From an uncultured candidate division Zixibacteria bacterium (GTDB lineage Bacteria; Zixibacteria; MSB-5A5; RBG-16-43-9), in NCBI GenBank assembly GCA_963713865.1, contig OY970208.1:2240001-2304000 (forward strand): 64,000 nt of DNA. Direction: 5' to 3'. A program made the position numbers and the translations under genes. The first letter of the stretch is position 1. The number at the start of each line of letters is the position of its first letter. The notes beneath the pieces are model-generated. The model ran no database searches, was not told the DNA's origin, and saw only the letters and a program-made list of their open reading frames with translations. Shown here piece by piece: positions 39,067-53,983 of this stretch.

Positions 39067-42000
39067 TTAAAACTCAGCCCCTAAAGAAAAGTAATGTCTC
39101 GGTTTGGGAGAGACCTTATCAAAATCAGTCTTCCAGCCAGCATCGTATCTCAGCACAAATATGCCTAAATTGATCCTGGCACCAAAACCAAATCCCGCTT
39201 TAATATCCTTTAACCTTGAATTACCATTTTCAGAAGTTCCGCCTTTAAATTTTTTCGTGTCATTCCAGGCGCTCCCTAAATCTAAAAACATTGCTCCAGT
39301 GATATATCTGAAACTTAAAGGAGGAAATCCCATTGATAGATACTCAATAAAAGGGTACCTGAATTCAAAATTGGTCAGAAAATATCTAGTCCCTTCTACC
39401 TCATAATATTCGTATCCCCTTAAAGGTGTAACCATACCGGAAAAATAAAGATCGTTTACACCATAGATATTTTCTGTTGCTAACCCGGGGTCAATCCAGT
39501 TGGAAATTCCACCTAAGAAGAAATGTCTGGGCTCTTCACCATCGCTTCTCCCCGCAGAAAACCTGAAAGCAAATCCAAACCTGTTTTTGCCGAAATGTAA
39601 GTACCTGCGATAGTCCAGCCATAGAGAGGTAAAGGAGATGCTCCTTTTAGAAATATCCGGTGACCACTCAAAACTGATAACGCTTCTTTTCCCATTTACC
39701 GGACCAGTTATCCCCCAGATAACGTTATCCTTCACCCAGGAGAAAGTACTTAACAGAACCTTTACGCTTCTATCTTCAAAAATACCTTCTGCATTAGGGT
39801 CATAATATCTTCGGTCAATGGAAAGATGGGTAAAATTGAACTCCACTCTGCTGAATTTGTTAAAGGGCAGGGATAGAAGACCGGTAGCTCCGTAAAGCCG
39901 GTCAGAGAAGAGCCGATCGGTTGAATCGACATAATAATATTTAGTATGGAAGATCCCGATCCCATAATCAATCCTCTTGGGCAGATATAGATAGATCAGT
40001 TGAAAGTCACTCTGGTCAATGGTATTAAAAAGGTCTGTGGCTAAATAGAAATTATGGTTTCCGAAAATATCGCTGACCGCTATAAAAGACTGCCCCTGGA
40101 ACCCAAAAAATGTATCATAGCTCAAAGCGCCAGATATTATATCAGGAGTAAATTTGAGTTTATATTTATTCTTCTTATATTCGCCGGATGGAAGTTTAGT
40201 AATCAGGGTTTCCTTCTCTGGCTCTGGTTCTTTCAGCATCTGGGAGAGAGAATCCAGCTCGTCTTCGGTGCTTTTGAAAACATAATAACTGTAATCCAGT
40301 TTCTTTCTCTCCTTTTGCGACTCTTCTTTCTTGGTAGTATCAGGAAGAATTTCTGCTTTCAGCTCTTTTTCTTGAACAAAAGCGGTTTTGGTTAAGGGGG
40401 TCTCATCCTCGTGAACTGATTTAATATCTTTAAGCAGAAATATATCCCAGCCACCTTTATAAAAAGAAGAGAAGACTACCTTTTCCCCATCCTTAGACCA
40501 GGAAGGGGTAAAACAGCCGGTCAGTATGTTAGTAAGAGGGTAACTCTTAAGACTATCTAAGGACTGGAGATAGAGATTGCTTATCCCGTTACGGGTGGAG
40601 CTGAAGCAGATCTTATTACCATCAGGAGAAAAAGCAGGAGAATAACTATTCTCCCCTCCTTGAGTAAATGTTTTGATTGCCTTAGTACTAAAATCTAAGA
40701 GGAAGATATTGTAAGAGCCATACACGTAGTTAGTATCTTGACTTTCTCCTGAAGGACGGTCTGAGGAGAAAGCAATAGTTTTTCCATCTGGACTCCAGGT
40801 AGGATCCCTATCATCATAATCATCTTCAGTTAATTTCTCCAGTTTACCGTTTGTGATGTCGGTTAAATAGAGGTCTGTTCGTCCCCTAGTCACCCCCACA
40901 AAAACTATACTCCTACCATCCGGAGACCAGGCTGGAGAGAAAAACGCATCTAAATTGAAATTAAACTTCTTATAGATTTTTTTCTTTTTCACATTTACCA
41001 GACATAAAACATCTTTTCCCTGACTCTTGGATACAAAGGTTATATCCCTGCCATCCGGAGACCAGGAAAGCCCGCTAACATAGGAATGCAAAGATTCTAA
41101 ATCGCCTGATCTTTCACCTTTGACCACTTTTTCGATAACTTTCCCATTAACTGCGGAAATAATATATATCTCAGTATATTCGCTCCGGTCAGAGAAGATG
41201 GCAATCCTGTCACCCTGAGGCGAAAAAGCTGGCTTCTCATTCATATATGAACCGTCCTTTTGATGATTGGTCAACTGTTTGGCAAAATCTTTTGGCTCCT
41301 GTCTTTGAGCTATCTCCGGCCAGTACTCTTTCCTCAAGTTTTTCATCCACTCTTCACTTAACTCCCTTTCGTCCAGTCCGATGGCTGACTTAAGACTTTT
41401 ATAAAACGAGCGCATCCCTTTACCTTTGCGAAGGATCTCAGAGATCTTCTCCTCCCCGTATTTGTCGACAATATATTTAATCACCGATTGACCTTCTTTA
41501 TAAACCAAGTATCCACCCGCTAAATCCAGAGAGTATAAGTAGCCGTTGACTGTGGCATCCCTTAAGATCATATCCGCTTCGATATCCCACCCTCCTCTGG
41601 AGAAATATTCTGCAAAACCTTCGGCAAACCATAAAGGCAACTGAAGATATTCTACACTCAACAGATTCCCGATCATGTTTCCATACAGCATATCGAAGAT
41701 AAAAGCATGGGTTAGCTCATGGGTAAGCACATGCCTGAATTCCTCGTAGGAGCCATTAAAAGGGACTACTACCCGATTCTTGAAAACTTCGGTGAACCCA
41801 CCCACATTTTCCTCGATCAGCTCGCTTATCACATTGGTTTGTTGAAAATCATTCGGTGAATCGTAGATGATTATCGGTATCCTCTTTCTCACCTCATATT
41901 TTAAGATCTTCTCTAAAGAAGGAGTTGCCTGTTCCAGGGTTTTGGCTGCAAATTCGGCTAAGTTGGATTTTAACCCGTAGTAATAGATATCATAATGGTC

Positions 42001-42141
42001 GGTTTGAATATAAAACCATTCAAAATTTTTATACTGGACCTTGTTCTTGCCGAAATACTCATCCTGACCTTTAGAAGGTGAAGTTGAGAAAGAAAAGATG
42101 ATTATCCCGGCAAAAAGAATTATAATTATTTTCTTAAGCAT
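39067..42141 (-). CDS. Omp85/BamA-type barrel protein with N-terminal gluzincin-like peptidase and PD40 beta-propeller
   Basis: HELTH...WFAEGFAE; repeated P[AT]WSPDG; LRGY barrel motif; C-terminal F. Confidence 0.85.
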   Translation of the reverse strand: MLKKIIIILFAGIIIFSFSTSPSKGQDEYFGKNKVQYKNFEWFYIQTDHYDIYYYGLKSNLAEFAAKTLEQATPSLEKILKYEVRKRIPIIIYDSPNDFQQTNVISELIEENVGGFTEVFKNRVVVPFNGSYEEFRHVLTHELTHAFIFDMLYGNMIGNLLSVEYLQLPLWFAEGFAEYFSRGGWDIEADMILRDATVNGYLYSLDLAGGYLVYKEGQSVIKYIVDKYGEEKISEILRKGKGMRSFYKSLKSAIGLDERELSEEWMKNLRKEYWPEIAQRQEPKDFAKQLTNHQKDGSYMNEKPAFSPQGDRIAIFSDRSEYTEIYIISAVNGKVIEKVVKGERSGDLESLHSYVSGLSWSPDGRDITFVSKSQGKDVLCLVNVKKKKIYKKFNFNLDAFFSPAWSPDGRSIVFVGVTRGRTDLYLTDITNGKLEKLTEDDYDDRDPTWSPDGKTIAFSSDRPSGESQDTNYVYGSYNIFLLDFSTKAIKTFTQGGENSYSPAFSPDGNKICFSSTRNGISNLYLQSLDSLKSYPLTNILTGCFTPSWSKDGEKVVFSSFYKGGWDIFLLKDIKSVHEDETPLTKTAFVQEKELKAEILPDTTKKEESQKERKKLDYSYYVFKSTEDELDSLSQMLKEPEPEKETLITKLPSGEYKKNKYKLKFTPDIISGALSYDTFFGFQGQSFIAVSDIFGNHNFYLATDLFNTIDQSDFQLIYLYLPKRIDYGIGIFHTKYYYVDSTDRLFSDRLYGATGLLSLPFNKFSRVEFNFTHLSIDRRYYDPNAEGIFEDRSVKVLLSTFSWVKDNVIWGITGPVNGKRSVISFEWSPDISKRSISFTSLWLDYRRYLHFGKNRFGFAFRFSAGRSDGEEPRHFFLGGISNWIDPGLATENIYGVNDLYFSGMVTPLRGYEYYEVEGTRYFLTNFEFRYPFIEYLSMGFPPLSFRYITGAMFLDLGSAWNDTKKFKGGTSENGNSRLKDIKAGFGFGARINLGIFVLRYDAGWKTDFDKVSPKPRHYFSLGAEF

Positions 42142-42159: not shown

Positions 42160-43422
42160 TTAAACTTTAACCCGGCTTATCTCCGCTCCCAATTTTGAGA
42201 GCTTTTCTTCAAATTTTTCATACCCCCGGTCAATATGGTAAATCCTTAACACCTCACTCTTACCTTCTGCTCCTAATCCGGCTAAGACCAGACCTGCTCC
42301 TGCTCGTATATCGGATGCCATCACTGAAGCACCTTTTAACTTGGGGACACCCTTTATTGTAGCCCTGTCTCCATTAACTATTATATCCGCTCCCAGCCGG
42401 TTTAGTTCCATCACATGCGTAAATCTATCTTCAAAAACCGTTTCTCTGATATAACTTGAGCCTGAAGCGGTGCAGGTAAGAGCCATTAATGAAGCTTGCA
42501 TATCTGTAGGAAAACCAGGAAAGGGGAAAGTGGTTACTGAGACAGGTTTAAGCCTGGAAGGACCTTTGACTGCTATCATCTTTCTATTCAAGCTAACATC
42601 TATACCCATCTCCTTGAACTTAAAGATAACTATGTTCAGATGCTCTGGGACACAGTCTTTAATCTCCACATAACCTGAGGTCACTGCAGCTGCCATCATA
42701 AAGGTGCCTGCCTCCAGACGATCTTTAATGCAGGTATGCTCAACTCCTATCAATTTTTTCACCCCGGTAATCTGCACAGTTGAAGAGCCAGCCCCTTCTA
42801 TCTTTGCACCCATCGAGTTCAGGAAATTAGCCACATCCACTACTTCAGGATCGCAGGCTGCATTTACCAGAGTGGTTTTACCTTCAGCTAAACAGGCTGA
42901 CATCATCACATTCTCAGTTCCGGTATGGCTGGGTCTATCAAAATAGATGATATTTCCCTTAAGTTTTTCAGCTTTAGCGACTACATATCCATGCTCTTCT
43001 TCAATTTTTGCACCTAAAGCCGATAAACCAGCTAAATGCAGATTAACCGGCCGAGGTCCTAAAACACACCCGCCTGGCAAGGAAACTTTTGCTTTCCCAC
43101 ACCGGGCTAAAAGAGGACCTAAAACTAAAAATGATGCTCTCATCTTTCTGACCAAATCATAAGGGGCTTCATAAGAAGAGAGGTTCTCTGCACTTATGGT
43201 TACTGTCTTTTCCTTAATCTCTTTTTTTATTTTAGCACCTAAGTGCTCTAAAACCTTGAGCATCGTATCTATGTCTGCTAAGTTAGGCACGTTGTGAATT
43301 ATCGATTCCCCTTTTTCAGCTAATAATGCCGCCGCTAAAACCGGCAGAACTGCATTTTTAGCACCTGAAATCTCCACTGAACCGGAAAGCTTTTTCCCAC
43401 CTTGAATAACGAATTTATCCAT
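42160..43422 (-). CDS. murA: UDP-N-acetylglucosamine 1-carboxyvinyltransferase
   Basis: GAKNA, MRAS, PGGC..G.RP, PGFPTDMQ, DIRAG and HIDRGY motifs. Confidence 0.97.
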   Translation of the reverse strand: MDKFVIQGGKKLSGSVEISGAKNAVLPVLAAALLAEKGESIIHNVPNLADIDTMLKVLEHLGAKIKKEIKEKTVTISAENLSSYEAPYDLVRKMRASFLVLGPLLARCGKAKVSLPGGCVLGPRPVNLHLAGLSALGAKIEEEHGYVVAKAEKLKGNIIYFDRPSHTGTENVMMSACLAEGKTTLVNAACDPEVVDVANFLNSMGAKIEGAGSSTVQITGVKKLIGVEHTCIKDRLEAGTFMMAAAVTSGYVEIKDCVPEHLNIVIFKFKEMGIDVSLNRKMIAVKGPSRLKPVSVTTFPFPGFPTDMQASLMALTCTASGSSYIRETVFEDRFTHVMELNRLGADIIVNGDRATIKGVPKLKGASVMASDIRAGAGLVLAGLGAEGKSEVLRIYHIDRGYEKFEEKLSKLGAEISRVKV

Positions 43423-43530
43423 AATTTCTCACCTTAAGTTTCATTATTAATACGTTATTTTTCATCTAAACCAAAATCTTTCTAAATGATAAATTAACTT
43501 TTTTAGATTCTTAGTCAAGGGTTCTTTTTT

Positions 43531-43929
43531 GTAGGGGCAGACCCTTGTGTCTGCCCTTTGATACGGTAGGGACAGGTTTCAAACCTGCTCCTATTACCTG
43601 TTATTGTGAGGAGTCACCTCGCCTTTAGCGGGGCGACGAAGCAATCCCTTTTGCTGGTCGTTGGTCTCCTGACCAACAATTCCTTGCAAATAGTGAAAAA
43701 TATCTCACAGCTGACTATTTTGATTAAGCCGATATTACCATTCTTATCCTAAGGATCCGTTTCTTGTATCTGCTTAATCCGTTCCATCAGCCTCAAGGTC
43801 AAATTCGACTGTGAATGAGATTTATACATCTCAAGTGACCGTCAGGTCCCCTGAACCAACGGAAAAAGACGCATAGGCTCAGCCATAGATTCTTCGGTCG
43901 TCCCCGTAGGGTACTCCCTCAGAACGACA
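43531..43929. repeat. Mosaic cluster of palindromic repeats
   Basis: GTAG REPs (43531-43557, 43566-43593), GTCATT-type elements (43600-43648, 43887-43929), a TCCTAAGGATCC..TGTGA unit (43747-43814) and a GTGACCG unit (43835) also found inverted at 30583-30606. Confidence 0.75.
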
Positions 43930-44013
43930 AACAAGAAGCGTTTTTGGCAGTTTAGAAATTTAAATGGAGATTTCAATTGATTGTTTTTTAATTTTATATT
44001 ATATAGAAAATAT

Positions 44014-44742
44014 ATGAAAGACACAGTTTATTTTATCTCCGATGCCCATTTGGGTTCAAATTCTCTTGAAAGGGAAAAGCTGAAAGAAGAGAGACTCCTT
44101 CTTTTTTTAGAACAGATTAAAAAGGACTCTCAAGCATTGTATATCTTAGGTGATCTGTTTGAATTCTGGTTCGAATATAAAAATGTCATTCCTAAAAACC
44201 ATTTTCCTATTTTAATGAAGCTGAAAGAGATTACAGACCTGGGAATCCCCATAACCTATTTAGTTGGGAACCACGACTTCTGGCTGGGCGATTCCTTGAC
44301 CGAACAGGTAGGAATGAAAATAGTCAAACACCCGCTCTCCGTAGAGCATCAGGGTAAAAAAATCTATCTCATACATGGAGATGGATTAGCCAAAGAAGAT
44401 ATTGGTTACAGGATATTGAAAAAAGTCCTGAGAAATAAAATCAATATCTTTCTTTATAAATTGATACCGCCTGATATTGGCATCCCCTTTGCAAAAAAAG
44501 TTGCTTCTTACAGTCGAGATAAGACTCAAGCCAGGGACAAGGAATTTTTAGAGGATTATCGAGAATTTGCTAAAGAAAAAATTATAGAAGGGTATGATGC
44601 GGTAATAATTGGACACACCCACCAGCCCTGTTTTGAGGAACTGGATAAAGGGGTCTATCTAAATTTAGGCGACTGGTTCGAGCATTTCACCTACGGGAAA
44701 TTAAGCGAGGGAAAATTTTATTTGATGGAATATAAAACATAG
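44014..44742 (+). CDS. lpxH: UDP-2,3-diacylglucosamine hydrolase (LpxH/LpxH2-like metallophosphoesterase)
   Basis: SDAHLG, LGDLFEFW, GNHDFW, HGD, GHTH and NLGDW motifs. Confidence 0.8.
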   Translation: MKDTVYFISDAHLGSNSLEREKLKEERLLLFLEQIKKDSQALYILGDLFEFWFEYKNVIPKNHFPILMKLKEITDLGIPITYLVGNHDFWLGDSLTEQVGMKIVKHPLSVEHQGKKIYLIHGDGLAKEDIGYRILKKVLRNKINIFLYKLIPPDIGIPFAKKVASYSRDKTQARDKEFLEDYREFAKEKIIEGYDAVIIGHTHQPCFEELDKGVYLNLGDWFEHFTYGKLSEGKFYLMEYKT

Positions 44743-44969
44743 GTAGGGGCGAGGTCTCCTCGCCCTATGACCGGTAGACCCATGTTGTTCCAATATGGGT
44801 TTTTATCCTTTTTGTGTAGGGGTGGGTTTCAAACCCACCCCTACAGCCCCTCGCAATTACAATTGGTAGGGGTACGGCGCACCGTGCCCCTACCTCCGAA
44901 AAGGTAGACACAGGGGCACACCCCGAAAAAATCGGGATTTCGCTACACTCAACAGGGATCTGCCCCTAC
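44743..44969. repeat. Cluster of GTAG REPs between convergent lpxH and leuD
   Basis: 44743-44768, 44816-44844, 44866-44893 and an interrupted copy at 44903-44969. Confidence 0.85.
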
Positions 44970-45460
44970 TTTTTCAAACTTCTCTTTAAATGTTCGATCA
45001 ATCCCCCATCTTCCAAAATCCCCATAACTATTTCCGGCAGAGGAGGGAAAGGAATTTTTCTATTTTCAGTTATAATCTCACCTGTAGCGTAATTCACAGT
45101 AATGATTTCCCCACCCTTTATCAAATCATAAGCCTCTTTGGACTGAACCAGAGCCAGCCCCTGATTGATTGCATTCCTGAAAAATATCCTGGAAAAAGAT
45201 CTAGCAATGACACAGGAAATCCCGGCAAATTTTAAAGAAGTAGCGGCTTGCTCCCTGGAAGAACCGCAGCCAAAATTGGAACCAGCCAAGATAATATCCC
45301 CTTTTTGAATTTTATTGGGAAATTCTTTATCATATCCTTCTAAGGCATGCTTAGCCATCTCCTGAGGATCCAAAATGGGAAGGCACTTACCCGGATAAAT
45401 CAAATCGGTATCAATGTTATCCCCGAATTTCCAGACTTTTCCCTTAATCTCTTTTAACAT
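44966..45460 (-). CDS. leuD: Isopropylmalate/homoaconitate dehydratase small subunit (LeuD/HacB type)
   Basis: FGDNIDTD, NFGCGSSRE and SFSRIFFRNAINQG motifs. Exact substrate uncertain. Confidence 0.85.
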   Translation of the reverse strand: MLKEIKGKVWKFGDNIDTDLIYPGKCLPILDPQEMAKHALEGYDKEFPNKIQKGDIILAGSNFGCGSSREQAATSLKFAGISCVIARSFSRIFFRNAINQGLALVQSKEAYDLIKGGEIITVNYATGEIITENRKIPFPPLPEIVMGILEDGGLIEHLKRSLKK

Positions 45461-45472
45461 ATTATTTTCACT

Positions 45473-47077
45473 TTATCTTTTTAAAAACTCCCTCGGGTCT
45501 GAAATCTCACCTTTGATAGCAGAAGCGGAAACAGTTGCCGGGCTGGCTAAATAAACTTCTGACTCAGCAGAACCCATCCTCCCTTTGAAATTACGATTAG
45601 TGGTTGCCAGACACTTTTCTCCTTTAGCCAGTATCCCCTGATGTGCACCTAAACAGGGACCACATCCTGGATTCAGCACTACACAGTTAGCCTCCAGAAA
45701 CGTTTTGATAAACCCCTTTTTCAAAGCTTCTAAATAAATCGATTTGGAGCCAGGCAGAACCAGCACCCTGGTATCTGGATGAACCTTTTTACCTTTTAGT
45801 ATCCTGGCTGCAATCTCCAGATCATCTATTCTGCCATTGGTACAGGAACCCAATAAAACCTGGTCTATTTTTATACCTTTAACCTCATCTATCGATTTCA
45901 CATTATCAACATTATGAGGACAGGCAACCTGTGGTTCCAATCTATCAATTTCAAATTCATATTCATTTTCATAGACAGCGTTCTGGTCAGCATAAATCGG
46001 ATGATAAGCTCTTTTAGCTCTGCCGTTAAGATATTTCTTGGTGACCTTATCAAAAGGAATAATTGCAAATTTTCCGCCCATCTCCATCGAAAGGTTAGCT
46101 AAGGTGAATCTCTCAGAAACGGACATATTCTCAACTGTATTACCATAAAACTCTACTGATTTATAATTTGCTCCTTCGACTGTCAATTTCCCGATTACAT
46201 AAAGGATTACATCCTTAGCATATACCCCCAGAGGAAGTCTGCCAAAAAGATTTAATTTGATACTTTCTGGGACCTTTAACCAGATTTTACCAGTAGCCCA
46301 GACTGCTGCCATCTCCGTTGCACCTACGCCAGTTGATAAAGCACCCAGACAGCCATAAGAGGTAGTATGTGAATCTGTTCCCACAGCTAATTCCCCCGGA
46401 AGTATATGTCCTTTCTCGATTACTACCTGATGACAGATCCCTTCCTTTATATCGTAAAAATTTTTTATACCCTGCTCTTTAACGAAAAGCCTGATCGAGC
46501 GGTGAGCTTCAGCCGTTTTCTCTGACTCAGCCGGAGCTCGATGGTCCAAAGGGATAACTATCTTATCAGGATTCCAGACTTTTGAGACTCCTATTGCCCT
46601 GAATTGTTTTATCACCAAGCCAGCATTGTCGTGGCTCATTGCTAAATCCGGTTCTACATAAACGATCTCCCCTACCTGAACCTCCTTTTTCCCTGCCTTC
46701 AGGCTTAACCCTTTCTGGGCGATTGTCATTCCCCTGTCTTTTATAAATCTTTTACTCATCTCTGGCAGATATAATTCAAGTTGGGCTAATTTCAAAACCC
46801 TGGGTTTCTCTAATAGATTATATTTCCTCCTCCATTTATAGAATGCCGCCTTGGAGATGGAAAGCTCCCTGCCAGCTTTAAGGTCATCTCCATGGATTTC
46901 CCAGAGCTCTTTTACCCTCTCAATACTATATTTAGGCAGAGCATACTTGAGGATTTTCTTTTTCCTTCTCCAGTAAGCCACCAGATAGGCTGGAACCCCC
47001 AGGACCTCCCCCATCTTTTTGTCTGTTTTATATTGAGCCTGAAGCTTAACCAGCTCTTCTTTCTTCGGAATTCTCAT
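45473..47077 (-). CDS. leuC: LeuC/HacA-type aconitase-family large subunit with a ~116-aa N-terminal tandem HTH-like extension
   Basis: GICHQ, DSHT, GSCTNGR, PGCGPCLG and NRNF motifs. Enzyme homology starts at GMTIAQK (Met117). Confidence 0.88.
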   Translation of the reverse strand: MRIPKKEELVKLQAQYKTDKKMGEVLGVPAYLVAYWRRKKKILKYALPKYSIERVKELWEIHGDDLKAGRELSISKAAFYKWRRKYNLLEKPRVLKLAQLELYLPEMSKRFIKDRGMTIAQKGLSLKAGKKEVQVGEIVYVEPDLAMSHDNAGLVIKQFRAIGVSKVWNPDKIVIPLDHRAPAESEKTAEAHRSIRLFVKEQGIKNFYDIKEGICHQVVIEKGHILPGELAVGTDSHTTSYGCLGALSTGVGATEMAAVWATGKIWLKVPESIKLNLFGRLPLGVYAKDVILYVIGKLTVEGANYKSVEFYGNTVENMSVSERFTLANLSMEMGGKFAIIPFDKVTKKYLNGRAKRAYHPIYADQNAVYENEYEFEIDRLEPQVACPHNVDNVKSIDEVKGIKIDQVLLGSCTNGRIDDLEIAARILKGKKVHPDTRVLVLPGSKSIYLEALKKGFIKTFLEANCVVLNPGCGPCLGAHQGILAKGEKCLATTNRNFKGRMGSAESEVYLASPATVSASAIKGEISDPREFLKR

Positions 47078-47094
47078 CTTAATATCTGATTATT

Positions 47095-47580
47095 CTAAGA
47101 GTGATTTCTTAAACTCTTTTTGAGCTTTCTGAATACCTCGCCCAGGCTGATGGAAACCACTTTTGTCTCTGCAAGGACCGGCATAAAATTAGTGTCTCCG
47201 GTCCAGCGAGGAACTATATGGATATGCAGATGATTAGCCACACCTGCACCTGAAACCTTTCCCAGGTTCATTCCTAAGTTTAAAGCTTCAGGTTTTAAAG
47301 TGGCTTTCAGGAGTTTAATGGAAAACTGTGTGGTTTTCATAAGGTCAGCCATCTCAGATTCAGTTAAATTTTCCAGTTTACCAGTATGCCGGTTCGGGCA
47401 AACCATTAAATGACCGGTGTTATAGGGGAAGCGGTTCATTATAACAAATGATTTCCCCCTCCGAAAAAGGATCAGGTTTTTCTCATCCTTTTTTTCTTTT
47501 AATCTTTTGCAGAATATACACCCCTTTTCTTTTTCCCCCAAGATAAATTTCCCTCGCCAGGGTGCCCAGAGTTTTTGCAT
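47095..47580 (-). CDS. HIT family hydrolase (Ap4A hydrolase/phosphorylase type)
   Basis: LWAPWR, CIFC, NRFPYNTGHLM and HLHIHIVPRW motifs. Confidence 0.9.
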   Translation of the reverse strand: MQKLWAPWRGKFILGEKEKGCIFCKRLKEKKDEKNLILFRRGKSFVIMNRFPYNTGHLMVCPNRHTGKLENLTESEMADLMKTTQFSIKLLKATLKPEALNLGMNLGKVSGAGVANHLHIHIVPRWTGDTNFMPVLAETKVVSISLGEVFRKLKKSLRNHS

Positions 47581-47672
47581 ATCCTAAAAGGATCCTTACT
47601 GGTCAAATTTTAAATTAATATACTAAATCGAAAAATATATTTCAATATCTTTTATAGAATATTTAAGTTCGT

Positions 47673-47765
47673 GTAGCGGAGGTTTTAAACCTCAGCGCCG
47701 AGCCCTGAAGGCTCGGCTACACGATTTTACAGCATCAGCTCGGGCAGAAGTTGTACTCCTGCCCG
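47673..47765. repeat. REP doublet
   Basis: GTAGCGGAGGTTTTAAACCTC...GCCGAGCCCTGAAGGCTCGGCTAC. Confidence 0.7.
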
Positions 47766-47775
47766 TAATAAAGGA

Positions 47776-47916
47776 TTATTTGGATTTCACCTGACCGAAC
47801 ATCCCGAAAAAAGCGAAAAGACCAAAAAGTCCAAAAAGCCCTTCCAAACCACGAATCATACCTAAAAACCCCAAAAGCCCCAAAAACCCTAAATATCCTA
47901 AATTTCTTTTGTCCAT
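47776..47916 (-). CDS. 46-aa Gly/Phe/Leu-repeat membrane microprotein (DUF3796-like)
   Basis: Below the ORF-track cutoff. MDKRNLGYLGFLGLLGFLGMIRGLEGLFGLFGLFAFFGMFGQVKSK*, SD GAGGT. Confidence 0.75.
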   Translation of the reverse strand: MDKRNLGYLGFLGLLGFLGMIRGLEGLFGLFGLFAFFGMFGQVKSK

Positions 47917-48033
47917 CGGCTACCTCATTTATGAAAATTACCTCTTGTTTCTAATCATAGTACAACCCTTTCAGGGGCGCTAAAACTGTAGGGACAGAAC
48001 AGTGTTCTGTCCCCTTTTTCATAACTATATTTT

Positions 48034-48696
48034 TTAGGTACTCAATATCATTTCTTCTAATTTCTGAAGAGCTTTTTCTCCGGACTCTAAAACCTTTTTG
48101 TCTATAAGTTCAAAACTATCGCAAAAATAATGAAATATAACATTAAAATAATATCTTGAAAGCAGTAGACTTTCTTTCACATATTTAATACTGGGCCCTA
48201 TATCAAAAAGCAACCCTTCTTGTGATTTGGAAATCTTAGGTAGAATACCTGTATAGTTAGTATGAATGATTTTCGAAAGGTCCTTATACCATTTATTATA
48301 ATGCTTCTCCATCCTTGCTGTTGTTGCCTTATCGGAAATTCTCTTGTGTTTTCTATACTGTTCAGGTTCTTCAAAAAACATTTTATGTAAAGTATGATTT
48401 TGTTTTTCCAGATATTTCAGGTCAATTACATTTTCTATTAGGGCTCTTACAAGAATACCAGCTTCAAGTCCCAATCCAAGATTACAAAGGTGATGAACTG
48501 ACACAAATAATGAGAATGATTTTGTAAAGATTGCCTGTATAATGCCTTTGAAATCGGATTCAAATCTAATTTTCTTTTGGTCAAAAATGTTTAGAACATT
48601 ATTTATGTTATTAATTAACTCCAAATTGAGGTCGAATAAATCTTTATATTTCACATATACTACATTTTCTATAACAAAGTCTTTTTTCTCTATCAT
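48034..48696 (-). CDS. Hypothetical alpha-helical protein (DUF5677-like)
   Basis: A.ILVRALIE..IDLKYL and Y..LS..IH motifs; very AT-rich; SD GAGTGAG. Confidence 0.6.
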   Translation of the reverse strand: MIEKKDFVIENVVYVKYKDLFDLNLELINNINNVLNIFDQKKIRFESDFKGIIQAIFTKSFSLFVSVHHLCNLGLGLEAGILVRALIENVIDLKYLEKQNHTLHKMFFEEPEQYRKHKRISDKATTARMEKHYNKWYKDLSKIIHTNYTGILPKISKSQEGLLFDIGPSIKYVKESLLLSRYYFNVIFHYFCDSFELIDKKVLESGEKALQKLEEMILST

Positions 48697-48724
48697 TCAA
48701 ACTCACTCTAATATCTGAACCTAA

Positions 48725-48848
48725 GCGAGGTTAAAGCCTCGCACTACGAAAAAATCTTTGGGCAGAACGATGTTCTGCCCCTACATCTCCATCGAATCAG
48801 GAAGCCCAATGGTCACATAGGTGCGGGCGTATTGCAATACGCCCCTAC
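48725..48848. repeat. Three GTAG REPs on the minus strand
   Basis: ...GCCTCGCACTAC, GGGCAGAACGATGTTCTGCCCCTAC and GGGCGTATTGCAATACGCCCCTAC. Confidence 0.8.
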
Positions 48849-48858
48849 AAAAAAATCT

Positions 48859-49455
48859 CTAAAACTCCACTCTCCCTTCAATCGCATTTGCCAGGGTAGT
48901 TATATCTGCGTATTCCAATTCCCCGCCTGCCGGAACTCCTCTGGCAATGCGGGTAACTTTTATCCCTAAAGGTTTTATCAGCTTAGCTAAATAAATCGCA
49001 GTTGCCTCACCCTCTACATTCGGATTGGTGGCAATTATCACCTCTTTGACGTTCTCTTTTAACCTGGTAATAAGCTCTCTGGTTTTCAAATCGTCCGGAC
49101 CTATTCCATCTAAGGGCGATAGTACCCCACCCAATACATGATAAAGCCCTTTATATTGATTTGTTTTCTCTAAGGCTAAAACGTCATTTGGCTCTTCAAC
49201 CACGCAGATTATGTTTTTATCTCTTTTGGTATCTTTACAGATATTACAGGGATCGTCTTCAGTGATATTAAAGCAAACCGAACAATATCTGACTCTATCC
49301 TTAACGTCTAAAATCGCTTGAGAAAGCTTCAAAGCCTCATCTCTTCTCTGCTTCAGAACATAGAAAGTCAATCTCTGGGCAGTTTTCCTGCCAATCCCCG
49401 GGAGTTTGGAAAACTCCTCAATTAATCTTTCAACTGAATCAGTTAGTTTTACCAT
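48859..49455 (-). CDS. recR: Recombination mediator RecR
   Basis: [12 protein letters not shown] HhH motif, C4 zinc finger and TOPRIM ([14 protein letters not shown]). Start set at MVKL. Confidence 0.96.
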
Positions 49456-49487
49456 AGAAATCTGTAGTCGCTCGATTTGTCGTTGGT

Positions 49488-49609
49488 TTCCCTCTCCCCT
49501 TGTGGGAGAGGGGAAAAATAATATCACCCTCCCTTTATCCCTCCTCTACGAGGAGCTAAGCCTCCGTAGGACCGTAAGGCTTTTATCGGCCTATGAGGGA
49601 GGGATAATT
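49488..49609. repeat. CCCTCTCC/CCCTCCC composite element with a nested ~47-nt insert
   Basis: Inverted copy of 54111-54200, interrupted at ~49545-49591. Confidence 0.8.
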
Positions 49610-49925
49610 AAAAAGGTAACCCTGGAAGTTTCAATCCACCAGTTAACTTTGACATCTCCTCAGTCTGAATTTCCTGAGATTTTTCTTTTGCCTGATTAAC
49701 TGCGGCTAAAACCAGATCCTCCAGCATCTCCACGTCCTCTTTATTCACCACCTCCGGATCGATTTTTATCTCCAGAATCTCCTGCTTGCCATTAGCTGTC
49801 ACTTTCACCATTCCCCCACCACTTGATCCCTCAACCCTTTTATTCTCCAGCTCCTTCTGGATCTCCTCCATCTTAGCCTGCATCTTCTGTACCTGTTTCA
49901 TCATATCCCCGAACCCTTTAGGCAT
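49608..49925 (-). CDS. ybaB: YbaB/EbfC nucleoid-associated protein
   Basis: MMKQVQKMQ, SGGGMVKV and EMLEDLVLAAVN motifs; dnaX-ybaB-recR synteny. Confidence 0.95.
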   Translation of the reverse strand: MPKGFGDMMKQVQKMQAKMEEIQKELENKRVEGSSGGGMVKVTANGKQEILEIKIDPEVVNKEDVEMLEDLVLAAVNQAKEKSQEIQTEEMSKLTGGLKLPGLPF

Positions 49926-50014
49926 CTTATCCTCCGCTTAACAAGCTGAATCCTGCCTTATGGGTCGTATCCCGCATATTTGCGGGATTATCGACCACAA
50001 AACGGGATTCACGG

Positions 50015-51661
50015 CTAAATTGGTTTCTTGTCAATTATCTCGCCACCTAAATTTTCCAGTATCTCTTTTAACCCGGGAATGTCTTGAGGTATAGATTCTT
50101 TTTTGAAAACCGGGCCTTTCTGAATAGAATTGTTTGGGCTGTCATTCAAACTGAAGCTGATCCTTAAATCGTTTTGAAATATCTGACTGGTTATTTCCTG
50201 AATCTGCTTCAGGTTGTCTCTTTTCTCCACCTGCTTTTTATGGAAATCATTCCCGTTAGGAAATCCCAAGAGCAGAACCCCGTTATCTAAGGACAGTATC
50301 TCTGCCTGACTAAGACAGCTCCAGAGTGAAGCTTTCTTTTCTTTTACCTTACTCAAGACTTCGGTCCAGCCAACTTTCAAATTTTCCAAACTCAGATTTT
50401 GATTTTTTTGATTCGTTTGGTTTGAATCTTTTTCTGGCTCAGGGTTTCCTTCTGAAATCCTATCCTTCAGTTCAGAGAGCTCTTTTTTCTCTGATAATCC
50501 ATATTCAACCCCCTCTTCTTTATTCCCTATCTGATCTAACTTTTTAAAAAGGGTCTCTAAGGAGACAGATGAATCCATCTTAATAAGCTTTAACAGTGCA
50601 ACTTCTAAATGGATCCTCGGCTCCGTAGTTCTTTTCAAAGTATAATTCAAATCCGCCACTATTTTTATCATCCTCAAAAGGTCTGTTTCTGAAAAACTCT
50701 CTGCTTCCTTTTTATATTTTTCGATATAGTGCTGGGAAAGATCAAAAAGCTTTTCAGACTCCCCGCCGGCCTTAGCCACTAACAGGTTTCTGAGATGATC
50801 TAATAACCCCAGAACAAATTCAGGCAGGTCAACACCCGAATCGATCAAGCTTTCTAAAAGCTCTAATCCTTTTTTACTATCTTTCTCTTTGATAATTTTA
50901 GTCAGTTCAAAAAAAACCTCTTGATCTACCAGACCCAGGGTCTGATCAACTATCTTCTTGGTTATCTTCTTGCCACCATAAGCTATCATCTGGTCTAAAA
51001 GGGAAAGACAGTCTCTGAGACTGCCATCCGCTTTACGGGCTAAAGTGTAAATGGCTTCCTTCTCCATCTCGAGATCTTCCTTTTTAGAGATGTCGTTGAT
51101 AGTCTCCACTACATCGTTAAAAGGGATTCTTTTGAAATCAAACCTTTGACAGCGTGATAAAATAGTTGGCGGCACATCCTGAGGTGAGGTAGTAGCAAAT
51201 ATAAAAACCACATTAGCTGGAGGCTCTTCAATGGTTTTGAGCAGAGCGTCGAAAGCAGAATCTGAAAGCATTTGAACTTCGTCGATTATATAGACCTTGT
51301 ATTTACCCCTTACCGGAGCATATTTAACCCCTTCAATTATCAGTTCCCTGATATCCTCCACCCGACTCTTAGAGGCGGCATCCATCTCGAACACGTCTAT
51401 ACTTCTGCCGGCATTTATCTCCTCACAGGCAGAGCAAAGGTTACAGGGTTCTGAGGTTGGTCCTTTATCGCAGTTCAGGGCTTTGGCTAAGATTCGGGCA
51501 ACTGTGGTCTTGCCAGTTCCTCTTGGTCCGGAGAAAAGATAAGCATGGGCAATTCTTTTTGAGTTTATGGCATTGACCAGAGTGGTAGTAACATGCTTCT
51601 GGTCCACCACCTCCTCAAACCCCATAGGCCTGTATTTCCTCGCCATTACTAAGTATGACAT
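50015..51661 (-). CDS. dnaX: DNA polymerase III subunit gamma/tau
   Basis: ARKYRP, GPRGTGKTT, IIDEV and SRCQRF motifs. Confidence 0.97.
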   Translation of the reverse strand: MSYLVMARKYRPMGFEEVVDQKHVTTTLVNAINSKRIAHAYLFSGPRGTGKTTVARILAKALNCDKGPTSEPCNLCSACEEINAGRSIDVFEMDAASKSRVEDIRELIIEGVKYAPVRGKYKVYIIDEVQMLSDSAFDALLKTIEEPPANVVFIFATTSPQDVPPTILSRCQRFDFKRIPFNDVVETINDISKKEDLEMEKEAIYTLARKADGSLRDCLSLLDQMIAYGGKKITKKIVDQTLGLVDQEVFFELTKIIKEKDSKKGLELLESLIDSGVDLPEFVLGLLDHLRNLLVAKAGGESEKLFDLSQHYIEKYKKEAESFSETDLLRMIKIVADLNYTLKRTTEPRIHLEVALLKLIKMDSSVSLETLFKKLDQIGNKEEGVEYGLSEKKELSELKDRISEGNPEPEKDSNQTNQKNQNLSLENLKVGWTEVLSKVKEKKASLWSCLSQAEILSLDNGVLLLGFPNGNDFHKKQVEKRDNLKQIQEITSQIFQNDLRISFSLNDSPNNSIQKGPVFKKESIPQDIPGLKEILENLGGEIIDKKPI

Positions 51662-51768
51662 TTCTTCTTCCTTCTATCTTCTTAGGTCTTACATCTCACA
51701 TCTTACTTTTTTTACTATGAACCATCTACCATTTACTACCCACCAGAATCAATCCTTCGGATTGATTC

Positions 51769-52039
51769 TCCCGTGCACCCACCTTCGATCCCTCCTCTGA
51801 GGAGGTTACCAGACAGTCAGGCTCCAGCCAGGCATCCCTGCGGCACACTCCAGTATTCACTTACCGCTGCTACCTTCCGGTCCTGACGGGTTTGGGTGAG
51901 CTCAAGTTGCGCAGGACCTGACCTTCATCGTCTTTTACCTTTCCCCTCTCCCGGAGTAGAAAACCTCAGGTGGGGATTCGATCCCGGTATAGCGGATTCC
52001 GGGCAACAGGGCACCGCTAACTCCCCATCTAGCACGGGA
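51769..52039 (-). ncRNA. ffs: Large (Alu-domain, Bacillus-type) SRP RNA
   Basis: Helix 8 CCGTCAGGACCGGAAGGTAGCAGCGG; 5' CCGTGCTAGATGGGGAGTTAGCGGTGCCCTG Alu-like start pairing with 3' GCACGG; ~270 nt; upstream of dnaX. Confidence 0.9.
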
Positions 52040-52139
52040 AAAGGAGACTTAATTCGCTTAAGGCGAATTAAATCTCCTGGTTTAATGGTTGATGGTTCAC
52101 GGTTCATATGAAAAAGCTCTGTCGAGATAAACACTAAAA

Positions 52140-52496
52140 TTACTTTCTTTCCCATCCTATAAATTCCCAGGATTTTTCCCTTACGGACTTCAATTCACAT
52201 TTACCAGATTGGTCAACTTTGTATGACATGACTACATTAACCTTGTATTTAGAACCTGTCTGGGAATCTATTACTATTAAGTTAACATCAAAATCTAGAT
52301 AATCATCCATCGTCTGTTGATCATTGATCTTAACCTCCAAAATATCAGATAAAGAATCAAACCTCCAGCCCATCTGAGAATCCTCAATTTTTCTTCCCAC
52401 TAAGTTCTTTCTGATTTGATTGACAGTCTGAGCAGATGAGCATTCTAACAATAACAAAAGCGAGATTACAATAAACTTGACTATTTTTACCCTCAT
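52140..52496 (-). CDS. Hypothetical exported protein or lipoprotein
   Basis: MRVKIVKFIVISLLLLLECSS signal-like N-terminus. The longer ORF-track start runs through a REP. Confidence 0.6.
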   Translation of the reverse strand: MRVKIVKFIVISLLLLLECSSAQTVNQIRKNLVGRKIEDSQMGWRFDSLSDILEVKINDQQTMDDYLDFDVNLIVIDSQTGSKYKVNVVMSYKVDQSGKCELKSVREKSWEFIGWERK

Positions 52497-52591
52497 TTTC
52501 AGAACTTCTTGGATTACTGGCGGGTGGAGACAAGCTCCACCCCTACGCGAATTTAATCTGACCACTGAACACTATTCACTGACCACTATAA

Positions 52592-52664
52592 TGGAGCAGA
52601 GCGGGATCGAACCGCCGACCTCCTCGTTGCGAACGAGACGCTCTCCCAGCTGAGCTACTGCCCC
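52592..52664 (-). tRNA. tRNA-Ala(CGC), CCA not encoded
   Basis: Cloverleaf GGGGCAG..TCTCG TT CGC AA CGAGG..GGTTCGATCCC..CTGCTCC A with the G3:U70 Ala identity pair. Confidence 0.95.
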
Positions 52665-52784
52665 AAGCAAGGCTGGTTTATAGTTCATAGTTAATAATTC
52701 ATAGAGCAAAAAAACATACGAACGAAATATCATTTAATCTGCAGAAAAAATCAAGAAGATTTTATTTTTATTTCTTTTGTTACA

Positions 52785-52813
52785 GTAGGGGCGGGTTTCA
52801 AACCCGCCCCTAC
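52785..52813. repeat. GTAG REP palindrome
   Basis: GTAGGGGCGGGTTTCAAACCCGCCCCTAC, a compensatory variant of 44816-44844. Confidence 0.88.
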
Positions 52814-52912
52814 AAAAATTCGGTTTTCAATTGTGCCCTCATCAATGAAGAAAAAGTCGTCTTAAAAATAACCAGCAGTTAAGAATTGAAGATGGAAAGC
52901 TTTCCGCTACCT

Positions 52913-53983
52913 CTAAGGAATTATCTTAACTTTACCTGGCTGGTTTTCTTTCCCTTCTACTAAAATCTTCACCTGAAGAAATTGCTGCGTCACCCAGATG
53001 TTAGTTAAAAGATGCCGGCTTATCCTGGAGACTGAAAAATTTGATTCATCTTGAGCTAAAGCTAAAAAGGGAATCAACTGGTCAGCTAAATGCTCCTCAA
53101 TTGCACCAGAAGTATTCATAAAATCCAGAAAAGCTCTACAGGCTTCATCTGAAACCTGTTCAGCTCTTTTACCTAAAGCGCCTAAGGAGCTGAAGCCAGC
53201 AAATGAATTCTCAAAAGAAGCCAGGAGAAAAAAGAAAGTCCCCTTACCGATGGAGGAAGCATCCAAGATTTCCGTCTCCAGATTAAAATTATTATCTTTT
53301 CCTAAGGATCCCCGATTTTGGGTCTTGACGACAAATTGTGATAAAATTTTCTCTGCCTCTTGTTTTTGTCTTTGAGCTATGGGAATAGGGAGATTTAAGA
53401 CCACAGATAAACCTGAAACCTTTAACAGTTTTCCTCTTTCGATTAAATTTAGCGGTTTTATCTTTTCAACTGGTCTTATCTGACAAATTACTTCCCCTCC
53501 CCCTTTTGGATACCATCCCCATCTTTTTATCTCCATACTCAGATTCAGTCCTAAACTATTGAGTATTGGAAAAAGAACTTTCTGAAAGTAGGTAACCGGG
53601 GGACTAAACGGAACATGAGTCCCGCCTTTCAATCTGAGTTCAGATGGAGCGTCGGCTAAGCTCAAAGGTATAATAATAGATTGTAAAACCAGACAGACTG
53701 AACCAGCAGTCCCCACGTCAAAAAAAAGATTCCCACCTTTGATCTTTTTGGGGCAAAATTTTAAAATCTGAGATTGAAGTTTATCTCCTTCTATCTCAGC
53801 CTCAGAAATAGCTTGGGCAGCTTTGACACAGGTTAAATGCTGAGCCTGCAGTCCTGGTACTTTTCTGCCCTTGCGGATATTATAGATTTCAATATCTTTT
53901 TGAAGAACACAGGAGAGAGCTAAAGCAGTTCTCAAAATCTGCCCACCACCCTCACCATAATTTCCATCAATCCGTATACTCAT
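52913..53983 (-). CDS. rtcA: RNA 3'-terminal phosphate cyclase
   Basis: GEGGGQILR, GL.AQH, GGTHV, GWYPKGGG, HLADQL and HLLTN motifs. Confidence 0.95.
   Translation of the reverse strand: MSIRIDGNYGEGGGQILRTALALSCVLQKDIEIYNIRKGRKVPGLQAQHLTCVKAAQAISEAEIEGDKLQSQILKFCPKKIKGGNLFFDVGTAGSVCLVLQSIIIPLSLADAPSELRLKGGTHVPFSPPVTYFQKVLFPILNSLGLNLSMEIKRWGWYPKGGGEVICQIRPVEKIKPLNLIERGKLLKVSGLSVVLNLPIPIAQRQKQEAEKILSQFVVKTQNRGSLGKDNNFNLETEILDASSIGKGTFFFLLASFENSFAGFSSLGALGKRAEQVSDEACRAFLDFMNTSGAIEEHLADQLIPFLALAQDESNFSVSRISRHLLTNIWVTQQFLQVKILVEGKENQPGKVKIIP

Follow-up and report, generated by a model that had tools for sequence, protein, structure and literature searches.

A locus of an uncultured candidate division Zixibacteria bacterium raises the question of why the large subunit of an iron-sulphur (Fe-S) dehydratase should carry a putative DNA-binding module in front of its enzyme fold, and in which of the two parts the conserved function lies. 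The locus is found on contig OY970208.1 of assembly GCA_963713865.1, within a stretch of 64,000 nucleotides (nt; contig positions 2,240,001 to 2,304,000) that is here called the window. There, an open reading frame (ORF) of 534 amino acids (aa) with an ATG start, at 45473..47077 on the minus strand, encodes a tandem helix-turn-helix (HTH) module, a linker and an aconitase-family large subunit of the isopropylmalate isomerase (IPMI) type; judging from its sequence, it is translated as one protein. In our comparison with relatives from the phylum of this organism (labelled Zixibacteria), the two parts are fused, the fusion is conserved and so is its position next to a HIT-family gene. Furthermore, the N-terminal HTH module together with a motif in the linker is the most constrained part of the family.

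An earlier note on this DNA, made from its letters alone, had described 116 extra N-terminal residues forming two repeats, intact cluster cysteines and catalytic motifs, and a tight placement between a HIT gene and leuD, and all of these observations held. The large-subunit profiles NF001614, TIGR01343 and TIGR02086 start at residue 117 or 118 and stop at 529-530, and as they start only there, the first ~116 residues constitute an extension. On the minus strand, it consists of two domains with three helices each, HTH domain 1 in residues 1-46 (46940..47077) and HTH domain 2 in residues 47-92 (46802..46939), followed by a conserved linear motif in residues 91-104 (46766..46807) and by a linker in residues 105-116 (46730..46765) that is variable in the alignment and disordered by its predicted local distance difference test (pLDDT) values. 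The Fe-S dehydratase large-subunit domain takes up residues 117-534 (45476..46729, same strand). A HIT-family gene (47095..47580, minus strand; Pfam HIT), which is ATP adenylyltransferase-like at a score below the cut-off (NF052622, 149.7 bits vs 290), ends 17 nt upstream of the fused ORF. A gene for a LeuD-type small subunit of the LeuD/DmdB family (44966..45460, minus strand; TIGR02087, 204.8 bits vs a cut-off of 108.95), the likely partner of the enzyme domain, begins 12 nt downstream. The fused gene probably forms one operon with the HIT-family gene that it follows.

Regarding the distribution of this architecture, the N-terminal module was matched by the 116-residue query in 37 of 41 related genomes, including 24 of the 25 high-quality ones, nearly always in open frames of 510-583 aa. 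With a profile of 34 such modules (alignment A1), a phylum-wide sample of 201 genomes gave matches in 194, among them 177 of the 180 high-quality genomes and covering 107 of 108 genera, with one match per genome and mostly in frames of 480-620 aa. Genome G011 was the exception with a second, weak match, which sits in an unrelated frame and was discarded. Among relatives the module is 51-93% identical and its frame stays open. A protein database search produced 329 proteins at E<=1e-3; PF00330 is present on all but one among the 120 matches listed, and where these listed matches are named, they come from Zixibacteria or Zixiibacteriota and are called '3-isopropylmalate dehydratase large subunit', 'aconitase family' or 'hypothetical'. 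Scanning of named genome contigs yielded 212 stretches, mostly labelled Candidatus Zixiibacteriota and some placed under other submitter labels. One relative (P0103) has the precomputed Pfam label PF28406.1 beside PF00330. A nearly universal single-copy family in an uncultured phylum indicates a core function.

Two simpler accounts of the extension had been raised together with it, namely that relatives encode the two parts as separate genes and that translation restarts at Met117. The first is ruled out, as the parts share fused frames in those 194 of 201 genomes across the phylum. Concerning the second, an AGGGGA does directly precede the ATG of Met117, as had been pointed out, and the restart is nevertheless ruled out by the lack of conservation of this codon. 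Its position could be located in the genes of 16 of 24 relatives, with ATG in one (from the same genus), TTG in five and a non-start codon in the remaining ten (TTA, CTC twice, CAG twice, AAA, CTA, TCA, CTG and CAA). In an exhaustive search of representative sequences with the module, 111 matches were obtained at E<=1e-3. Most of the short matches represent fragments or ends shifted out of frame; two or three, P0155 (136 aa), P0161 (121 aa) and P0149, may be stand-alone modules.

The gene order is equally stable. In a sample of 55 loci from relatives' genomes, the HIT gene precedes the fused gene in the same orientation in 54, in many cases overlapping it by 4 nt, and was not found in locus L035. 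In locus L045 (G008:C23, 3383-5482), the HIT and HTH-aconitase genes lie in a single 699-aa frame in which the first ~40 HTH residues are missing; this joined frame is either a natural in-frame deletion and fusion or an assembly error in a genome that is 74% complete.

The nature of the extension was approached through structure prediction, profile comparison and residue conservation, with family alignments that are shallow and restricted to the phylum. AlphaFold2 on A1 (mean pLDDT 82.6) returned two three-helix bundles, with helices at residues 6-16, 19-26 and 30-39 and at 52-62, 65-71 and 76-85, in agreement with the HTH character that the earlier note had read from the repeats; residues 106-118 have a pLDDT <50. 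Profile-profile alignment of residues 1-46 with residues 47-92 by hhalign, based on the 34 family members, gave a probability of 95.3% (E 2.2e-8, 39 columns), and BLASTP of the two halves of a single sequence gave no alignment. By their profiles, the two HTH domains are homologous to each other and the internal duplication is real. VIA-align superimposed residues 1-46 on DNA-binding HTH domains with Z scores of 4.2-6.3 and a root-mean-square deviation of ~2 Å over 40-45 residues. The neighbours include a mycobacteriophage repressor, Reb1, the GcrA DNA-binding domain, NtrC4, Mos1 and Myb, and those with Z >=5 are all DNA-binding domains.

Sequence searches beyond the fused family point in the same direction. 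With phmmer, HTH-repeat proteins with 3-8 matched stretches were found at E values from 1.3e-22 to ~1e-4, and HTH_23 is present in 16 of 18 scanned, being the top family in 13; the proteins headed by HTH_23 match at E values of 1.3e-22 to 1e-10. An ankyrin protein among these 18 was rejected as spurious. One relative of the window protein (P0057) reaches 24.2 bits against HTH_23 (PF13384), with a gathering threshold of 24.6. Matches in the ESM Atlas, all to HTH families, have scores of <=0.76 and are leads only. We concluded that the module is a double HTH of the HTH_23/homeodomain-like kind. It is also very basic, having 26 Lys and Arg in 105 residues, a net charge of +14 and an isoelectric point of 10.0, and the third helices hold invariant residues, W36, R37, K39 and K40 in domain 1 and W82 and R83 in domain 2. 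Charge and invariant basic third-helix residues are indirect signs that the module may bind DNA.

The enzyme domain of the window protein is complete. It scores 591.9 bits against NF001614 (cut-off 385), 565.2 against TIGR01343 (385.7) and 547.5 against TIGR02086 (410.15), and residues 117-530 cover the large-subunit profiles from position 1 to the end. The [4Fe-4S] cluster ligands C412, C472 and C475 are present, as are all eight motifs (MSHDN, LDHR, GICHQ, GTDSHT, GSCTNGR, GCGPCLG, NRNFKGRMG and ASP), which are invariant in an intact clade of 60 sequences. The closest solved structures are the large subunit of the Methanocaldococcus jannaschii isopropylmalate (IPM)/citramalate isomerase (4KP1/4NQY, E 1.2e-141) and that of homoaconitase (4KP2, 9.7e-119), both aligned with residues 115-530.

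Such integrity is confined to a part of the family. In a set of 131 proteins, obtained from 146 (P0001, P0003-P0147) by removing 15 outside the range of 480-600 aa, 60 keep all the motifs and 71 are without the catalytic motifs; none of these 71 has all three cysteines. The degenerate members are still diverged IPMI-family proteins, scoring from 372 down to 49 bits against NF001614. Averaged over columns, identity within the enzyme part is 0.86 among intact proteins vs 0.47 among degenerate ones, whereas within the HTH part it is 0.83 for either group. At the level of loci (two of the 55 are cut by contig ends and were left unclassed), the 28 complete genes of the window's order (27) and of family f5 (1) are intact without exception, while in twelve other families 25 of 25 genes are degenerate and match 0-4 of the 8 motifs; this pattern could reflect either loss of catalysis or derived replacement. 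A LeuD-like gene lies downstream in 25 of the 28 intact loci, the other three ending at or near the gene, and in only 4 of the 25 degenerate loci, with 26-44% identity.

As most of the family does without the cluster ligands, Fe-S sensing cannot be the conserved mechanism, and it may be a layer specific to the window's lineage. This divides the proposal of the earlier note, a DNA-binding trigger enzyme sensing iron, oxygen or substrate, into two parts. The architecture of an enzyme with an HTH part stands; iron or oxygen sensing as the conserved function does not, as none of the 71 degenerate members keeps the three cysteines.

The second strongly conserved element is the linear motif KPxxLKxxQL[ED][LF]x[LF] in residues 91-104 (KPRVLKLAQLELYL), with QLELYL (residues 99-104) as its core. 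It is disordered (pLDDT <50) in both the model of the module and the full-length model, yet conserved: all 131 proteins share P92 and Q99, 130 have L95 and 127 have L100. Starting at Q99, six residues fit Q[LM][EDQ][LF]x[LFMI], with the fifth position free, in every one of the 131. The passage on clamp binding in PMC6511837 gives the bacterial consensus as QL(D/S)LF, and the corresponding passage in PMC4564189 gives the motif also as QLxLF or QLxLxL. The linker pattern fits the bacterial clamp-binding consensus in its letters, which makes the motif a candidate for binding the beta sliding clamp. The likeness noticed earlier, then judged weak, deserves more weight, as the motif is present in 131 of 131 proteins and lies within a disordered linker.

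In regard to the reaction that intact members might catalyse, the genomic context excludes an obvious candidate. HMGL-like synthases (LeuA, CimA and homocitrate synthase; PF00682) had no match in the 2.72-megabase one-contig genome, which is 94% complete (controls 14 of 14), and this extends to the whole genome the absence of leuA that had been reported for the window; in the window's order, one of 34 genomes has a PF00682 synthase. With the genome yielding no 2-alkylmalate synthase, the substrate would not be an intermediate of leucine biosynthesis. The fused protein also falls below the LeuC equivalog TIGR02083 (513 bits vs a cut-off of 610.65) and the methanogen homoaconitase HacA profile NF040615 (501.6 vs 550). 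The genome has two further large subunits. One is encoded in an operon outside the window (G000:C1:2184412-2188970, loci L010 and L017), between citrate synthase and a small subunit that is followed by NADP-dependent isocitrate dehydrogenase (NADP-IDH). It is plainly the aconitase of the tricarboxylic acid (TCA) cycle, apparently a two-subunit enzyme of the IPMI type. Two Iso_dh copies are found in the genome, and one of them is the NADP-IDH of this TCA operon. The third large subunit is encoded at 1607451-1608614, and a lone third small subunit ~530 nt past the window end. The four-residue stretch of the LeuD-like subunit that we take to be the substrate-recognition loop reads, in alignments, CLPI here and YLPI in most relatives, as against YLVY in the M. 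jannaschii IPM/citramalate isomerase and YLRT in homoaconitase. PMC7308503 ascribes the substrate preference to a 'substrate recognition region' in a flexible loop of the small subunit.

Since the extension is HTH-like both by its fold and by its homology to HTH_23, an enzyme joined to a DNA-binding part, a 'trigger enzyme', is the best reading of the fused protein, and as its enzyme domain is still a predicted working hydro-lyase in the window's lineage, the protein would be bifunctional there. On balance we consider it probable that the family consists of DNA-tethered, trigger-enzyme-like bifunctional proteins whose conserved job resides in the N-terminal part. According to this model, the very basic double HTH would tether the protein to DNA, the linker motif would dock a partner, with the beta sliding clamp as the leading candidate, and the aconitase fold would act as an effector or as a sensor scaffold. 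In the window's lineage, the protein is predicted also to work with its LeuD-like partner as an Fe-S hydro-lyase.

A more far-reaching version, which we regard as rather doubtful, would make it a phylum-wide single-copy clamp-tethered protein. Its double HTH would sit on DNA and its aconitase fold would report the metabolic or Fe-S state to the replication and repair machinery; it would be catalytic in this order and a pseudoenzyme elsewhere, and would act together with the adjacent HIT nucleotide hydrolase or transferase.

Several results weigh against the DNA-tethered model and have to be set beside those that favour it. The window protein stays below the Pfam gathering thresholds, with HTH_Tnp_1 at E 0.0018 and 18.9 bits (24.1 needed) and HTH_23 at 14.2 bits (24.6 needed), these being the matches that fall on domain 2. 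Foldseek found nothing in PDB at E<=1e-3 for the two-domain model; the top rows, not significant at E 0.1-1, are tandem homeodomains, DUX4 double homeodomains and the bipartite DNA-binding domains of Mos1/Tc3. The range of VIA-align Z scores is common for small helical domains, and the module profile gave only chance-level rows against PDB sequences. The full-length model is of moderate quality only (pLDDT 72.6, 60-row alignment) and is silent on the interaction between the domains. Up to 250 nt upstream of the HIT gene were searched for operators and palindromes by eye, with no motif-discovery program run, in 47 of 56 loci, and none was conserved. All that these regions showed were promoter hexamers and, among the closest relatives, a run rich in A/T that follows the -10.

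The part of the model that involves the clamp meets similar difficulties. When residues 86-118 (A1) were docked to the genome's own DnaN (L059:1501-2613, 29-row alignment A3), the score was 0.54 (runs 0.48, 0.54 and 0.60) and the best of three controls was 0.00, a result in the low-scoring band and open to memory of solved complexes. At least 72% of the contacts are shared between the runs, and the pLDDT of the partner does not fall below 47. In the calibration, 116 of the 157 complexes with a known structure reached the mark, as did 2 of the 215 mismatched pairs, and scores of <=0.60 hold only 18 of these 157 complexes but both passing mismatches; since custom alignments were used here, these counts are only a rough guide. 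Clamp-peptide complexes have already been solved, so that a pass may show likeness or memory and not binding. The prediction gives weak support to docking of the linker motif to the DnaN beta clamp. The gene neighbourhood gives no general support to the clamp idea, as replication genes are rare there: among the 55 loci, recR is near the pair in 3, both dnaX and ybaB in 2, and dnaN in a single one; recR, ybaB and dnaX are upstream only in the window's own family. The single dnaN, in locus L037 (G009:C8), lies directly upstream of the HIT and HTH-aconitase pair and is absent from the other 54 loci. DinB of the same genome, intended as a positive control for the local clamp motif, showed no clear C-terminal motif, and no aconitase-family or HTH_23 protein was found as a clamp partner in our searches of the open-access literature.

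The alternative that survives best is that the N-terminal module serves protein-protein contacts or assembly, docking the HIT protein, the LeuD-like subunit or another protein, so that an enzyme, or in most of the phylum a decayed enzyme, would come with an adaptor. Three-helix bundles also act as protein-binding modules, and the constancy of the HIT gene as a neighbour, often so close that stop and start codons overlap, hints at two proteins that belong together physically or functionally. Sub-threshold HTH matches and the lack of an operator in our search would suit an adaptor as well. Against it speak the charge of +14, the invariant W-R-x-K-K and W-R in the third helices, the homology to HTH_23 arrays and the DNA-bound HTH domains among the best structural neighbours. 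Furthermore, an adaptor would not be expected to hold a column identity of 0.83 while the enzyme that it serves falls to 0.47. We therefore rate this explanation as fairly unlikely.

Somewhat less credible, although in keeping with the sensing proposed in the earlier note, is a transcription factor of the classical kind that regulates its own operon and uses its Fe-S cluster to sense iron, oxygen or substrate. In its favour are the intact cluster ligands and catalytic residues in the window's lineage, the promoter-like site upstream of the operon and the parallel of the aconitases IRP1 and CitB with their cluster-dependent switching. However, not one of the 71 degenerate members has retained all three cysteines, yet the HTH module and the linker motif are kept, and no operator-like repeat was seen by eye to be conserved at the family's own promoter.

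Binding of RNA instead of DNA, with post-transcriptional control as in IRP1 and CitB, would suit the very basic module and the fact that aconitase-family proteins are known RNA binders. In IRP1, however, it is the aconitase fold that contacts the RNA, with no added HTH involved, and the structural neighbours of the module with Z >=5 are without exception DNA-binding domains, which leaves this possibility very improbable. An annotation artefact, consisting of two genes or of an ordinary LeuC starting at Met117 behind a frame open by chance, could call upon the AGGGGA-N-ATG and on the few short module-like proteins (P0155, P0161), and is effectively refuted by an open frame with a module of 51-93% identity in 194 of 201 genomes, by the non-start codons at 10 of 16 located Met117 positions and by the fragmentary or frame-shifted state of most short matches.

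Some features of the surroundings of the operon are worth describing. A promoter-like site, TTGAAA-17-TATATT, lies upstream of the HIT gene (47617..47645, minus strand), with similar hexamers in relatives of the same order. A scan for Rfam families and tRNAs over window positions 43000-53000 showed no RNA match within the operon. In the 453-nt gap between a DUF5677 gene (48034-48696, minus strand) and the HIT gene, a small ORF of 46 aa was read by eye at 47776-47916 (minus strand). Its product is very hydrophobic, rich in Gly, Leu and Phe and shows a repeated G-L/F-x-G spacing; GAGG stands a few bases before its ATG, and two hairpin-forming stretches follow it. Palindromic hairpins of the GGCAGAAC-N3-GTTCTGCC type at 47993-48011 and 48761-48779 bracket the DUF5677 gene, two being present in the window vs 0.00 expected. 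A DUF5677 gene is absent from this position in all 55 loci of the relatives, and three relatives of the same family have recR as the first gene upstream of HIT. The DUF5677 gene with its bracketing hairpins looks like a lineage-specific insertion. Further away, a bacterial large signal recognition particle RNA (51771-52037, minus strand; 172.8 bits) and a tRNA-Ala(CGC) (52591-52665, minus strand) are both found upstream of dnaX-ybaB-recR. Downstream of the operon are genes for an LpxH-like metallophosphoesterase (43981-44742, plus strand), MurA (42160-43422, minus strand) and a PD40/peptidase-MA protein (39067-42141, minus strand). The LpxH-like gene recurs in 17 of the 55 loci, distant families included, which indicates that the locus is old and that the LeuD-like gene dropped out in most lineages.

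Compared with systems already described, the window protein shares its Fe-S ligands, catalytic motifs and separate LeuD-type small subunit with the IPM/citramalate isomerase and homoaconitase large subunits of M. jannaschii. It differs from them by the 116-residue HTH extension with linker, by its sub-equivalog scores, by the C/Y-LPI loop and by a genome in which no 2-alkylmalate synthase was found. PutA, BirA and NadR are trigger enzymes with a DNA-binding domain in the same polypeptide, and the likeness to them is one of architecture only, a single chain in which an enzyme is combined with a putative DNA-binding module. Here the enzyme family is a different one, the fold is a double HTH_23-like one, the linker resembles a clamp motif, and over most of the phylum the putative DNA-binding part has survived the decay of the enzyme.

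The moonlighting aconitases IRP1/IRP2, AcnA/AcnB and CitB bind RNA with the aconitase fold and without an HTH. Like IRP1 beside IRP2, the fused family has a catalytically intact form beside relatives that lost catalysis; unlike IRP1 and CitB, it adds a separate N-terminal module to a small large subunit of the IPMI type. With beta-clamp-binding proteins it shares Q[LM][EDQ][LF]x[LFMI] in a disordered stretch, and phmmer links it to proteins with 3-8 tandem HTH_23 repeats. In contrast to the Tc3 and Mos1 transposases, no transposase or other catalytic DNA domain is attached to its HTH domains, and the Foldseek E values to these are >=0.1. As a further parallel, a preprint (10.1101/799742) reportedly describes a citrate synthase that controls the cell cycle independently of its enzymatic activity.

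Concerning novelty, the earlier note had known of no described example, and in our searches of the open-access literature we likewise found neither a fusion of an HTH with an aconitase-family protein, nor an aconitase-family protein with an added double HTH, nor this family. Enzymes fused to DNA-binding domains and moonlighting aconitases are each already known, and it is the combination with a double HTH that seems to be new. Hundreds of entries of the phylum that bear the name '3-isopropylmalate dehydratase large subunit' are probably misnamed, and most of them, as far as their motifs tell, would not be enzymes. The family forms a natural series from a bifunctional enzyme to a pseudoenzyme, which separates the role of the HTH module and linker from that of catalysis. 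If the clamp-tethered version should prove true, it would represent a new link between central metabolism and the replisome.

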